Part shown: positions 31,831 through 35,316 of the stretch, in pieces | Numbering within the stretch: position 1 is the stretch's first letter | Layout: every line of letters starts with the position of its first letter | Sequence record: SRR20825010_3251 | Strand: one strand, 5' to 3' | Length of the DNA: 35,316 nt | The notes under the pieces: model-generated | Database searches by the model: none | Told to the model about the DNA's origin: nothing | Seen by the model: the letters and a program-made list of their open reading frames with translations, nothing else | Made by a program: the position numbers and the translations under genes

Positions 31831-33585
31831 ATGTCAGGACCACGTCGAAAACGAAGCCGCATTCAAAAACGCGCCGGCATTACACGCCGCTCATTCCTGA
31901 AAGGGCTGGGTTTTGGCACCGCCAGTGTCACAGGTTTGGGCCTGCTGCACGGCTGCGGCAGCGACAACAATTCAAGCACTCCAACCGACAGCCGCACCAC
32001 AGCCAGCGACAACACACCCACGCAGAATGTGCAGTTTCTGCACAGCGTGGCCAGTGGCGACCCTGCCTTCGACAGCGTGGTGTTGTGGACCCGCATCACG
32101 CCGGGAAATGGGCCTGAAAACACGAACCGCACCGTAGCAGGCCGCGTGGATGTATTCAAGGATGAAGCGCTAACCCTGTTTGTGAAGTCGATGAACTTCC
32201 AAACCACCGCCGATCAAGACTTCACCGTGAAACTGATTTGCGACGGGCTGGAACAGGACAGCGTATATTTTTATCAATTCCGCAGCAACGGCACCACAAG
32301 CCCGGTGGGGCGTACCCGCACTGCGCCTGCAGCAGGCAACAAACGCCCCTTGAACTTTGGCGTGGTCAGCTGCTCAAGCCTGGCACACGGGTTTTTCAAC
32401 GCCTACAACAAGCTGGCTGATCGCGACGACATCGACGCCATCATTCACCTGGGCGACTACATTTACGAATACGGTACCGGCCAGTACGGCACGGTACGCG
32501 AATACGAACCCGCCACTGAGATTATTTCTCTGAGCGACTACCGAACCCGCCACGCCCAGTACAAGCGCGATGAAGACCTGCAAAAACTGCACGCGCGATT
32601 CCCCTTCATTACCATTTGGGACGACCACGAATCCACCAACAACTCCTACCGCGACGGCGCAGAAAATCACACAGAGGGCGCTGAAGGCGTGTGGGAAGAG
32701 CGCAAGGGCTTCGCACAACGTGCCTATGACGAATGGATGCCCATTCGCCTGCCGGAACCTGGCAACCGCGCCAAAATTTTCCGCCGCGTACAGTTTGGCG
32801 ACATGGTGGACTTGTTCATGCTCGACACCCGCCTGTTTGACCGCGACATTGAAGCCGCAACGCCTGTGAACCCCACCGATGGTGTTGCAAGCGAACCAGA
32901 CCGCACCATGATCGGCGAGGAACAGTACAACTTCCTGATCAACGGCATGCGTGAATCACAAGCCCAGTGGAAGCTGGTGGGCAACCAGGTGGTGTTTCAC
33001 CAGTGGATCATCAAACCCGGCGTCAACAACCCGGCACCCACACCAGTGGGCGACCTGCTTGCACCTTCCGGCCTGAACGGCGACGCGTGGGACGGCTACA
33101 GCGCCGAGCGCCAACGCATCATCAGCGCCCTGCGTGGCGACGATGGCGGCCCAGCGATCGACAACGTGGTCATTCTGACCGGCGACGTGCACAGTGCATG
33201 GGTGGCCGACATCACCGACAACCCCAACCAGCCCGTGGATGCTGCGGGCGGCTACAACCCGGTCACAGGCGATGGCAGCGTGGCCACCGAATTTGTGGTG
33301 AGCTCGGTCACCTCTCCGGGTCTGGACGTACCCAATCAAATTATTGAAGGTATTCGCCTGAGCAGCCCACACATCAAGCACGTGAATGTGACCGAGCGCG
33401 GATACAGCGTGCTTCGCGTGGCCGAAGACCGAACCACCTGCGAATACTGGGCTGTCAGCACCATTCTTGAGCGGGGTGGCTCCGAACAGCTGTCGGCAAC
33501 TTTCGACGTTGCAGCCGGCGCCAACCGCATTACCCAGCAGGGCGTGTTCCCTGTGGACGAGGTCACCGGCCTGTTGGGTGTTTGA
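31831..33585 (+). CDS. phoD: PhoD-family alkaline phosphatase, Tat-exported lipoprotein
   Basis: TRRSFLK, LHGC lipobox, F.HSVASGDP, VVLWTR, HLGDYIYE, IWDDHE, LDTR, D.WDGY..ER and TGDVH. Confidence 0.93.
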   Translation: MSGPRRKRSRIQKRAGITRRSFLKGLGFGTASVTGLGLLHGCGSDNNSSTPTDSRTTASDNTPTQNVQFLHSVASGDPAFDSVVLWTRITPGNGPENTNRTVAGRVDVFKDEALTLFVKSMNFQTTADQDFTVKLICDGLEQDSVYFYQFRSNGTTSPVGRTRTAPAAGNKRPLNFGVVSCSSLAHGFFNAYNKLADRDDIDAIIHLGDYIYEYGTGQYGTVREYEPATEIISLSDYRTRHAQYKRDEDLQKLHARFPFITIWDDHESTNNSYRDGAENHTEGAEGVWEERKGFAQRAYDEWMPIRLPEPGNRAKIFRRVQFGDMVDLFMLDTRLFDRDIEAATPVNPTDGVASEPDRTMIGEEQYNFLINGMRESQAQWKLVGNQVVFHQWIIKPGVNNPAPTPVGDLLAPSGLNGDAWDGYSAERQRIISALRGDDGGPAIDNVVILTGDVHSAWVADITDNPNQPVDAAGGYNPVTGDGSVATEFVVSSVTSPGLDVPNQIIEGIRLSSPHIKHVNVTERGYSVLRVAEDRTTCEYWAVSTILERGGSEQLSATFDVAAGANRITQQGVFPVDEVTGLLGV

Positions 33586-34554: not shown

Positions 34555-34578
34555 CCACACTGGCCCCCTTGACAGCTT

Positions 34579-34593
34579 TGATACACTACAACA
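34579..34593. promoter_or_regulatory. Candidate Zur box
   Basis: TGATACACTACAACA matches 11 of 14 defined positions of TGTTATAnTATAACA. It lies just after a TTGACA hexamer (34569-34574) and upstream of a His-rich ORF and a ZnuD-like receptor. Confidence 0.4.
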
Positions 34594-34629
34594 ACTGTTG
34601 CAAACACAAATAACACACTGAACACACTG

Positions 34630-34971
34630 ATGCGTTCCCGCTGCTTTCATCACCTGCTAATCGCGCTAGCCCTACTTGCAGCGCAATGGGCAGGGCTTGC
34701 CCACAGCATCGAGCACCGTCAACATTTGCACCCAGCTCAACAGGGTGCAGAACACGCCGTTGAACACAGCGGGTCGTCCGCAGACCTGCTTCACTCCTGT
34801 TTGCTGTTCGATGGACTAAGTACTGCGCACGCAGCGGTGTCCAACCCCCCTGCCGGTTTGGCTTTGCCCCTGCTGGCACAGCTCGGCACCCAAACCGCTG
34901 CCATTGCAGCCCCCCGCAACACCTTGTTCGCACAACGCGTGCGTGTGCGCGACCCGCCCCGTTTTTCCTGA
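34630..34971 (+). CDS. DUF2946/CruR-like leader protein (His-rich, C-terminal RxPP motif)
   Basis: Hydrophobic N-terminal helix ending LAHSIEH, a His-rich linker, HSCLLFD, an Ala/Pro-rich spacer and terminal RVRDPPRFS. Directly upstream of a TonB-dependent receptor. Confidence 0.75.
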   Translation: MRSRCFHHLLIALALLAAQWAGLAHSIEHRQHLHPAQQGAEHAVEHSGSSADLLHSCLLFDGLSTAHAAVSNPPAGLALPLLAQLGTQTAAIAAPRNTLFAQRVRVRDPPRFS

Positions 34972-35058
34972 AACTTTACAACGCAAAGTACACAATTGAC
35001 CGCCCATGCCTAGGCCACAAAGCCGGGCAACGGCGGCTTGTCACATTTCAGGAAAAAC

Positions 35059-35316
35059 ATGAACACTTTTCAATTCCAGCGCAGGGCAGTCGCCCTGGCA
35101 AGCATGCTATTGATTGCCAACGCACAAGCCCTTGCACAAGAACCTGTGCTTGAATCCGTGGTGGTTACTGGCACAGCTGACAAACCCGATTCAATCACCA
35201 AGCCTTTTTCAGTCATCACGGCGGACGAACTGAACGCCAGTGGCGCAAGCACCATAGGCGAGGCCTTGCGCTATCAGCCAGGCGTGTCCTCCACCGGCTT
35301 CGGACCCAATTCCAGC
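35059..35316 (+). CDS. TonB-dependent receptor, ZnuD-like (5' part only)
   Basis: Hand translation: MNTFQFQRRAVALASMLLIANAQALA-QEPVLESVVVTG...SVITADEL....ASTIGEALRYQPGVSSTGFGPNSS, i.e. signal peptide, TonB box and start of the plug domain. AGGA Shine-Dalgarno. Confidence 0.88.
   Translation, partial: MNTFQFQRRAVALASMLLIANAQALAQEPVLESVVVTGTADKPDSITKPFSVITADELNASGASTIGEALRYQPGVSSTGFGPNSS

Follow-up and report, generated by a model that had tools for sequence, protein, structure and literature searches.

What is the role of a 113-amino-acid open reading frame (ORF) that stands directly before the gene for a ZnuD-like TonB-dependent receptor? We addressed this question in sequence record SRR20825010_3251, of which a stretch of 35,316 nucleotides (nt) was analysed (hereafter, the window). 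A preliminary description, made from the sequence of the window alone, had proposed that this ORF is a metal-sensing ribosome-arrest leader related to CruR, with an altered metal site and R-D-P-P in place of R-A-P-P. To our knowledge, metal-sensing arrest peptides have so far been known solely for copper (CruR and CutF). We give a probability of roughly 60% to the reading that the ORF is a cis-acting, exported leader of the CruR/CutF class that would act as an arrest switch for translation of the ZnuD-like receptor, a judgement that draws on analogy with these systems. The locus, together with a family of at least 477 sequence clusters, is a well-defined candidate for metal-sensing arrest with a metal other than copper.

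Architecture of the leader

The leader ORF lies at 34630-34971 on the plus strand, as do the other window features given below unless stated otherwise, and encodes 113 amino acids plus a stop codon (product MRSRCFHHLLIALALLAAQWAGLAHSIEHRQHLHPAQQGAEHAVEHSGSSADLLHSCLLFDGLSTAHAAVSNPPAGLALPLLAQLGTQTAAIAAPRNTLFAQRVRVRDPPRFS). We regard it as a candidate CruR/CutF-like exported arrest peptide on the basis of its homologues, a family profile and codon conservation. The motif HSCLLFD (34792-34812) corresponds to residues H55-D61 and RDPP (34948-34959) to R107-P110. RDPP is followed by R-F-S and the TGA stop codon (34969-34971), and 87 nt separate this stop from the receptor ATG at 35059. The preliminary description had placed the ORF, both motifs and the gap exactly here. 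Its spacer of "about 45" residues holds only approximately, as the actual distance is 49 residues from C57 to R107, or 46 when counted after CLLF.

The product begins with a basic MRSR, followed by a hydrophobic helix at residues 8-24 (34651-34701) that may be a signal peptide or a membrane anchor. Kyte-Doolittle hydropathy averages 1.25 over residues 7-25, and an AlphaFold2 model built with a wide family alignment (A2, described below) places a helix at residues 2-33, with a predicted local distance difference test score (pLDDT) of 90-96 for residues 1-20. Because this N-terminal helix is the only confident part of the model (mean pLDDT 65.3, predicted template modelling score 0.33), the geometry of a metal site cannot be read from it. 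At the end of the helix is H-S-I-E-H (residues 25-29, 34702-34716), an HxxxH motif whose conservation in A2 makes it a candidate source of metal ligands. A linker rich in His and acidic residues follows (residues 30-52, 34717-34785). Comparison within the Limnobacter clade shows that it varies in sequence and length: in most members the stretch from HSIEH to HSC has 19-29 residues, with 2-7 His and 2-6 Asp or Glu, and the window linker has 4 His and 3 acidic residues. Next comes the single-Cys motif H-S-C-L-L-F-D (residues 55-61), which takes the place of CxxC; its H55 and C57 do not vary, and its D61 is nearly invariant.

The C-terminal module P-R-N-T-L-F-A-Q-R-V-R-V-R-D-P-P (residues 95-110, 34912-34959) is a candidate tunnel-interacting arrest sequence, as judged from the alignment and from synonymous codon changes. 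Within it, stalling is predicted at R-D-P-P. The toeprints that PMC12992588 reports for CruR, ApdA and ApdP suggest, by analogy, that Pro109 would then occupy the P site and Pro110 the A site.

Conservation of the leader and its family

A word-indexed search returned 51 leader homologues, several of them named from Limnobacter. In an alignment of 30 homologues, HSIEHR, H55, S56, C57, L58, L59, D61, R105, R107, P109 and P110 were invariant, and P95, N97, L99, F100, Q102, R103, V104, V106 and D108 were nearly invariant; 29 of the sequences ended in RDPP and one in RGPP. When the window is compared with 12 related genome loci, the residues of LFAQRVRVRDPP (L-F-A-Q-R-V-R-V-R-D-P-P) are constant although their codons differ by synonymous changes, which points to constraint on the peptide itself at the C-terminal module. 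One homologue on a 720-nt contig (P0009) ends in R-E-P-P in place of R-D-P-P.

Searched exhaustively with the single sequence, 1.84 billion representatives yielded 30 matches, which placed the Limnobacter proteins as one clade of a wider family. In the wide alignment A2, no variation is seen at G22, H29, H55, C57, R107, P109 and P110, and very little at Q19, H25 and D61. A profile built from A2 matched at least 477 clusters at E values up to 0.001. The 120 clusters listed were all without a precomputed Pfam domain and called hypothetical, and two carried the UniRef name "DUF2946 domain-containing". The same profile matched 70 of the 401 sampled Burkholderiales genomes. Judged by these matches, the leader is a member of a large unannotated Burkholderiales family.

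The family pattern consists of an export helix, HxxxH, a single-Cys H-x-C-x-x-F-D motif, a rigid spacer of 47 or 49 residues and R-[A/G/D]-P-P. We tallied the endings in two sets of small proteins. In the first (72 proteins among P0001-P0075), 53 ended in RDPP, 11 in RAPP, 6 in RGPP and 1 in REPP, and 1 had no Pro-Pro end. In the second (the 62 further members P0077-P0138), 61 ended in RAPP, none in RDPP, RGPP or REPP, and 1 had no Pro-Pro end, so that RAPP is found in 72 of the 134 small members overall. The exception in the second set, P0101, is a 228-amino-acid ORF with the N-terminal motifs of the family and is possibly a read-through or a fused call. In the first set, Cys and Arg are 49 residues apart in the RDPP members and in all but one of the 6 RGPP members. 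The sixth RGPP member shares a distance of 47 with 10 of the 11 RAPP members, and the eleventh RAPP member has 46. In the second set the distance is 47 in 61 of 62 proteins, that is, in all RAPP members. After R-x-P-P, a tail of 2-3 residues follows in nearly all family members. The RDPP clade is distinguished by a spacer two residues longer, an R-V-R-V context and a three-residue tail x-F-S. Based on these motif and spacing tallies, RDPP is a derivative of the Limnobacter clade inside a RAPP family.

Two expectations of the preliminary description were borne out here. R-x-P-P is conserved among the homologues, in the alignment of 30 as well as in both tallies, and CxxC is replaced by the single-Cys motif: among the further members, HxxxH and H-x-C-x-x-[FYL]-D were each present in 62/62 and CxxC in 0/62.

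A chance ORF without function is ruled out by the 51 close and hundreds of distant homologues, the synonymous substitutions and the constant place before a TonB receptor; nothing spoke for it beyond the lack of a recognisable Shine-Dalgarno sequence before the ATG. Another explanation is that the leader encodes a stable small metal-binding protein, periplasmic or membrane-anchored, which serves the receptor as a chaperone or partner, with ordinary translational coupling and no regulated arrest. HxxxH, the His-rich linker and H-x-C-x-x-x-D would all suit such a protein. However, the strictest conservation falls in a 16-residue C-terminal module that ends in R-x-P-P at a fixed distance from the Cys and from the stop, and motifs of this kind are strongly avoided in ordinary proteins (PMC12992588). 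The mostly low-confidence AlphaFold model also argues against a stable fold; for CruR, a low-confidence model was likewise reported, and CruR was undetectable as a protein (PMC9426467). We consider the stable-protein explanation very unlikely.

Relation to DUF2946

CruR is the prototype of DUF2946 (PF11162), so we compared the leader with this family. Against PF11162 the leader scored 10.9 bits (E 0.8) and did not reach the cut-off of 23.7, despite an end-to-end match that aligns residues 8-110 with positions 8-117 of the 117 in the model. Weak matches were obtained for 11 of 29 family members, with a best E value of 0.0036. Four Limnobacter genomes contained no ORF above the PF11162 cut-off, compared with 44 of 151 Burkholderiales genomes that had one. 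The traits of DUF2946 present in the leader are an N-terminal export-type helix and the position as the first gene before a TonB receptor; at the place of the C-terminal RAPP of DUF2946, three residues before the stop, the leader has RDPP.

As a canonical sample we used 29 bona fide DUF2946 ORFs from 30 loci, which carry CxxC, then 43-47 residues, then x-x-P-P. Their endings were RAPP (19), RGPP (4), RDPP (2; L029 and L034) and one each of AAPP, TGPP, QEPP and QGPP, with the frame of the TGPP case doubtful. RDPP is therefore a natural ending in bona fide DUF2946. The description of RDPP as non-canonical needs amending: RDPP is not without precedent, and the leader family mostly uses RAPP, with RDPP belonging to the Limnobacter clade.

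Alignment of A2 to the 29 DUF2946 ORFs with hhalign gave probabilities of 16-25% (P 1.5e-4 to 1.6e-3) and was confident solely at the R-x-P-P end. The A2 profile also recruits a short CxxC type that shares the head AQ-x-x-G-x-x-H-x-x-x-H, and three places above the PF11162 cut-off (G088, G085 and G024) match it with E values of 1.6e-7 to 5.5e-10. In the Atlas, one set of clusters has PF11162 on 14% of its members. Since A2 pulls in short CxxC members, three of them above the PF11162 cut-off, the leader family is best seen, at the level of these profile matches, as a sub-threshold branch of a DUF2946/CutF-like assemblage. When placed in register by eye, the short CxxC type has C-V-V-Y-A-G-I or C-A-A-Y-D-A-M from its second Cys, compared with C-L-L-F-D-G-L in the leader. 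This suggests that C57 corresponds to the second Cys of CxxC and that the first Cys was lost, with H55 two residues before C57. For DUF2946 the distance from the Cys motif to R-x-P-P is given as 45 residues, within one or two, and it is 43-47 in the canonical ORFs sampled. In the window leader, counting from C57 gives 49, and treating C57 as the first Cys gives 46.

The receptor and the candidate metal

The receptor gene begins at 35059 and runs off the window at 35316, leaving 86 codons of its 5' part: a signal peptide, a TonB-box-like ESVVVTG and the start of the plug. This fragment matches the TonB Plug domain PF07715 (E 3.7e-6). Comparisons were made in related Limnobacter genomes reached through homologous loci. 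In L001, the closest of these loci, the receptor is identical to the window fragment at 74 of 86 residues and the leader is 93% identical; in a blastn comparison of the window end with L001, the acyltransferase part alone matched (90.9% identity). The residues of a zinc site fall beyond the window end, and full-length receptor tests were done on orthologues (the L001 receptor is P0076).

The best NCBIfam match of the L001 receptor is ZnuD (NF038289), with 292 bits against a cut-off of 950. Its best relative in the PDB is ZnuD of Neisseria meningitidis (4rdr, E 2.1e-44). ZnuD has a buried high-affinity zinc site formed by Asp99, His100, Glu340 and His499 (PMC4557270), and these ligands align to the identical residues D126, H127, E313 and H475 of P0076. 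We took the ligands as chain positions 113, 114, 354 and 513, the 14-residue offset being the sole one that gives D, H, E and H. The capture-loop region of ZnuD is missing, as chain residues 255-317 are spanned by query residues 271-277. This loop in ZnuD is His/Asp-rich and extracellular (H241-D251; PMC4557270), and no His-rich stretch was visible in the P0076 receptor.

The type of receptor follows the type of leader. Behind Limnobacter leaders, ZnuD was the best match for L001, the one receptor tested, and the D-H-E-H quartet was present in 5/5. Behind other single-Cys leaders, ZnuD was the best match in 7/7 and the quartet was found in 9 of 10 (the exception being L089). Behind short CxxC leaders, ZnuD was the best match in 2/2; the quartet is complete in L064, and L079 shows D-H-E before the fragment ends. 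Receptors behind canonical DUF2946 leaders of the same bacterial order had ZnuD as best match in 0/10 and the D-H pair in 0/10, and were instead heme-like, siderophore-like, TonB-copper (TIGR01778, 472 bits) or PqqU-like. The tabulation of motifs against receptor subfamily that the preliminary description had proposed thus pairs single-Cys leaders with ZnuD-like quartet receptors and canonical leaders with receptors that lack the quartet. Because the ZnuD match and the quartet track single-Cys leaders and not canonical DUF2946, leader type and receptor type co-vary: as the sensor ligands went from Cys-Cys to His/Cys/Asp, the regulated receptor would have changed alongside, to the ZnuD zinc-site type.

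The preliminary description had named zinc, nickel or cobalt as the sensed metal. A ZnuD-like receptor with four ligands that co-varies with the leader favours a metal other than copper, and most simply zinc; for zinc itself we see the chances as about even. Neisseria ZnuD is under Zur control. In four Limnobacter genomes (G001-G004, possibly incomplete), a ZnuA-type binding protein (PF01297) was found in 0/4. The FUR family is represented by a single gene per genome; that of G001, the only one tested, is Fur with 171.8 bits (cut-off 146). Judging from these genes, Limnobacter may be without the usual Zur/ZnuABC zinc system, and the leader may explain how zinc import is controlled in a genus without a recognisable Zur.

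Alternatively, the leader could be a copper sensor like CruR and CutF, in front of a receptor that imports copper or a copper chelate, with the likeness to ZnuD due to common descent alone. The relatives studied all respond to copper (PMC9426467; PMC9973294), and His, Cys and Asp can also bind copper. In addition, a convergent gene for a PCu(A)C copper chaperone lies directly after the receptor in L001 and L087. Yet this gene is on the opposite strand, and the neighbourhood is confined to a Limnobacter-like lineage. The Cys pair typical of copper sensors has been lost (CxxC in 0/62), and the receptor retains all four ZnuD zinc ligands, unlike the receptors behind canonical DUF2946 leaders. Leader and receptor form a bicistronic unit with no PepSY_TM gene after the receptor, whereas such a gene follows more than 75% of CrtA/BfrG-type copper receptors (PMC12914433). 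Taken together, copper sensing seems improbable to us.

Predicted pairing of the leader end with the receptor Shine-Dalgarno sequence

Folding of the RNA from leader to receptor predicts that the end of the leader masks the Shine-Dalgarno (SD) sequence of the receptor gene. The 5' arm of this stem (P1), an anti-SD sequence GUUUUUCCUGAAA at 34961-34973, comprises the last base of codon 111, Phe112, Ser113, the stop codon and 2 nt. The 3' arm UUUCAGGAAAAAC at 35046-35058 includes the SD sequence AGGA (35050-35053) and abuts the start codon. P1 encloses an inner GC-rich hairpin (P2, 35000-35036), which is seen in both the minimum free energy (MFE) and the centroid structures; at its position, other Limnobacter-type loci have a hairpin of wholly different sequence. 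The MFE is -47.4 kcal/mol (z = -3.46), and none of 200 shuffled sequences was as stable. P1 is present in the MFE and centroid structures, and a repeat finder independently reported both of its arms.

The P1 pairing is predicted in 13/13 Limnobacter-type loci, with 9 pairs unchanged in 12-13 of the 13. The tail TTT TCC TGA shows no synonymous change in any of the 12 in-frame loci. In Limnobacter parvus (L010:6301-6510), one base is missing downstream of the Pro-Pro codons, so that the tail reads A-F-P-E-A-N-N-T-L-F-stop in place of x-F-S-stop; the frameshifted tail keeps the nucleotides TTTTCCTGAAG and their pairing with the downstream SD sequence. Because L010 keeps the nucleotides despite its frameshift and no synonymous change occurs elsewhere, we interpret the tail as being under constraint at the RNA level. 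Of 7 further single-Cys loci that were folded, 5 showed a similar pairing of tail and SD sequence, as did 2 of 10 canonical DUF2946 loci; starts in these loci were chosen heuristically. As a predicted feature, this pairing is new at this locus.

In a partition-function model, the SD bases had a probability of being unpaired of at most 0.004 on free RNA and of 0.03-0.95 with a ribosome at the stall site (covering the RNA to +13 to +17). A ribosome at that position would thus open the SD sequence partially. Since any ribosome at the leader stop opens P1, coupling would also be possible without arrest, as the stable-protein explanation requires.

Expression could also be controlled as in CruR, where a stalled ribosome blocks Rho. 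Release of the stall would then lead to Rho-dependent termination in the gap, and the SD stem would be secondary or absent in vivo. This mechanism has been shown for the closest studied case, CruR before its TonB receptor (PMC9426467). The base composition would also suit Rho: the leader is C-rich (126 C and 84 G), as Rho-utilisation sites are, and the gap has 26 C and 18 G. But the gap is 87 nt long, compared with 162 in Bordetella pertussis, and is predicted to be almost wholly structured, which is unfavourable to Rho loading. Moreover, the pairing of anti-SD and SD sequences is kept at the nucleotide level in 13/13 loci. As the sole account of the locus we find Rho-dependent control unlikely; it is compatible with SD masking, and the two mechanisms are not exclusive.

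Proposed mechanism and comparison with known systems

In the arrest-switch reading, a ribosome translating the leader would stall at R-D-P-P, with Pro109 in its P site and Pro110 in its A site, aided by the conserved PRNTLFAQRVRVR acting from within the exit tunnel. The stalled ribosome would cover the next 12-15 nt, which form the 5' arm of the 12-13 bp stem with the receptor SD sequence. As long as the stall is on, the SD sequence would be free and the receptor made. Once the leader is finished and the ribosome gone, the stem would re-form and mask the SD sequence. The emerged chain, with HxxxH, the His-rich linker and H-x-C-x-x-x-D located 49 residues from the stall site, would bind metal, most likely Zn(II), and metal-induced folding or pulling would free the stall, so that the importer is off when metal is plentiful. 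The gene, its family and conservation, the zinc-type receptor and the predicted pairing with its nucleotide conservation come from the sequence comparisons above; what we infer is that arrest occurs, which metal is sensed, where sensing takes place and in which direction control runs.

Arrest at RDPP is plausible from what is known of related peptides. Arrest at the RAPP of CruR was demonstrated by toeprinting, and few four-residue words are avoided in proteomes as strongly as RDPP (PMC12992588). In ApdA and ApdP, a change of Ala to Asp, which gives RDPP, retains partial arrest (Fujiwara et al. 2025, PMC12992588). The compartment of sensing was proposed to be the cytoplasm for CruR and the periplasm for CutF.

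Several observations weigh against this mechanism. The arrest retained by RDPP in ApdA and ApdP is only partial, and the modelled opening of the SD sequence by a stalled ribosome is partial as well. P1 shows no covariation (RNAalifold term 0.06) because both of its arms are invariant, and each arm is otherwise constrained, one by coding and the other by SD function. No clear SD sequence was recognised for the leader's own ATG, and the C-rich composition of the leader resembles that of Rho-utilisation sites. No Zur/Fur-like palindrome or operator was recognised by eye in the aligned upstream regions. The downstream starts in the other loci were chosen heuristically. To these we add the sub-threshold PF11162 score, the low hhalign probabilities, the ZnuD score below its cut-off, the missing capture loop and the nearby PCu(A)C gene.

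Of the known systems, CruR of B. pertussis (Bp2923; Roy et al. 2022, PMC9426467) is the closest. Both are small exported ORFs placed first before a TonB receptor, and in both a Cys motif lies about 45-49 residues from a C-terminal R-x-P-P that ends three residues before the stop; CruR acts in cis. A TonB receptor follows the leader directly in the window, in each of the 11 Limnobacter-type loci where a leader was called, and in 10 of the 11 remaining single-Cys loci, the eleventh of which could not be assigned. In L057 and L090, ORF picking gave no clear gene downstream of the leader. The CruR/CutF architecture, with a TonB receptor as the next gene, is seen in every homologous locus that could be resolved. 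An uptake gene as the target, as in CruR, leads us to expect the logic that the stall turns expression on and metal turns it off. Unlike CruR, which has CXXC, RAPP, a 162-nt gap and Rho-dependent termination, the leader has the single-Cys H-x-C-x-x-F-D with HxxxH, RDPP and an 87-nt gap with an SD-masking stem. The receptors differ too, being ZnuD-like with zinc ligands and without PepSY_TM here, and of the CrtA/BfrG copper type in CruR.

CutF of Rhodobacter capsulatus (Ozturk et al. 2023, PMC9973294; 10.1101/2025.02.05.636593) likewise senses as an exported nascent chain and stalls at a proline-rich C-terminus. In CutF, the SD sequence of the next gene is shielded by a stem-loop that the stalled ribosome melts, and a stem of this kind is predicted here. 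The leader has the properties by which CutF-like proteins were listed: fewer than 150 amino acids, PP among the last 15 residues, a signal sequence and a gap below 1000 nt. In contrast to the leader, CutF carries CxxxC and controls a copper-detoxifying oxidase whose expression is raised by copper, so its stall is strengthened by metal. Since the target here is an importer, we expect the opposite sign. A further difference is that the leader's own last codons and stop serve as the anti-SD sequence. By analogy, the arrest-switch reading joins the RNA device of CutF with the uptake-gene logic of CruR, in which the stall means on and metal relieves it.

In SecM-secA of Escherichia coli, too, the leader is exported and arrests close to its end; this opens the structure by which the SD sequence of the downstream gene is hidden, and pulling force on the nascent chain releases the arrest. 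SecM monitors secretion, unlike the candidate metal sensing of the leader, and its arrest uses RAGP preceded by a different sequence.

ApdA, ApdP and the surveyed RAPP/RGPP upstream ORFs before TonB receptors (PMC12992588; Morici et al. 2024, PMC10951233) share with the leader an R-x-P-P core, with its irreplaceable Arg, near the C-terminus of a small exported protein. The RAPP members of the leader family would fit the "TonB-related" class of PMC12992588. As described there, the survey extracted RAPP and RGPP ORFs alone, so the RDPP clade would have been missed; RDPP has been tested solely as a mutant, which was partially permissive. On the receptor side, the closest relative with a solved structure is ZnuD of N. 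meningitidis (4rdr; Calmettes et al. 2015, PMC4557270), and the four zinc ligands are common to both. ZnuD differs from the Limnobacter receptor in its capture-loop region and in the score reached (950 bits being the cut-off, compared with 292), and no Zur was found in the four Limnobacter genomes.

The preliminary description had known of no account of this variant. In part, such variants have been described. Among CutF-like proteins, 29 clusters were distinguished in an earlier survey (PMC9973294); their sites consist of Cys, of His or of both, TonB neighbours occur, and His-only clusters were noted beside nickel or cobalt genes. Mixed Cys/His sites and non-copper contexts had thus already been surveyed, and a 2025 survey covered RAPP/RGPP upstream ORFs before TonB receptors (PMC12992588). 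An RDPP leader linked to zinc was not among what we found. A literature search, with the cluster lists of PMC9973294 outside its scope, returned no zinc-linked arrest leader, no natural RDPP arrest peptide and neither the single-Cys H-x-C-x-x-F-D family nor its association with ZnuD-type receptors. Three small supplementary texts of PMC9973294 contain no mention of Limnobacter, ZnuD or zinc.

We also put forward, as a possibility that we hold to be doubtful, a more specific version: Limnobacter, seemingly without Zur and ZnuABC, would control the receptor solely by a nascent-chain Zn(II) sensor. Its Cys/His/Asp site, formed by HxxxH and HxCxxxD, would fold around Zn(II) close to the ribosome or translocon, on the outside, and pull on a weakened RDPP arrest, with the stop region re-masking the SD sequence. 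If this is true, no arrest peptide responding to zinc and no natural use of RDPP would precede it, and the strength of the arrest would be matched to the pull that metal binding can exert. With its natural series RAPP, RGPP and RDPP (plus one REPP) at fixed geometry, the family lends itself to testing how arrest strength relates to the force needed for release. The RNA device is small and completely defined: 13 bp between the stop region and the SD sequence, open to testing by a few point mutations.

Gene neighbourhood

Upstream of the leader, on the same strand, are genes for a PhoD phosphatase and an acyltransferase. The former (31831-33585), two genes upstream, is a PhoD-family phosphatase with a weak twin-arginine signal match and no apparent link to the leader. 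A conserved block CTTGACAG..TTTG.TA.ACTAC (34568-34589), which includes TTGACA (34569-34574), precedes the leader and is a possible -35 element or operator. It is kept in 11 of 12 aligned upstream regions (the window and 10 loci) and is missing in L001. A sigma-70 consensus scan gave 0 promoter-like sites, and a terminator scan gave one site, on the minus strand at the leader start, which is within chance expectation. In L001 (5990-6010; compare window 34555-34629), 7 nt separate the acyltransferase ORF from the leader ATG, and the two genes may therefore share a transcript in that locus.

On the other side of the unit, in L001 (8503-9752) and L087 (4195-5490), a DUF4197 gene and then the PCu(A)C gene run convergent to the receptor; the L001 ORFs overlap by 4 nt. 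Other leader relatives stand near zinc-related or more general genes. A CxxC/RAPP leader above the DUF2946 cut-off (L077:878-1432, G088) heads a ZrgA zinc-uptake gene (PF10986, E 2.9e-46; NF047873), and in L092 a COG0523 GTPase is encoded two genes upstream of the leader relative; both neighbourhoods speak for zinc. In L083, L084, L088 and L091 the leader-receptor pair precedes a STAS-domain gene and then hslU, with hslV between them in L084 and L088 and dksA upstream in L083 and L084. This STAS/hslU neighbourhood recurs in Burkholderiales and has no obvious link to metal.

Short CxxC leaders that end in RAPP and carry the HxxxH head (L066, L068, L069, L071-L074, L076, L078 and L081) precede a protein of about 450 amino acids or longer. 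This partner (for example, L072:1977-3308) gave no Pfam match at E values up to 1e-5, and those of L069, L072 and L081 gave no NCBIfam match at 1e-25. By their sequences and shared position, these proteins of about 450 amino acids are an unnamed partner family of arrest leaders.

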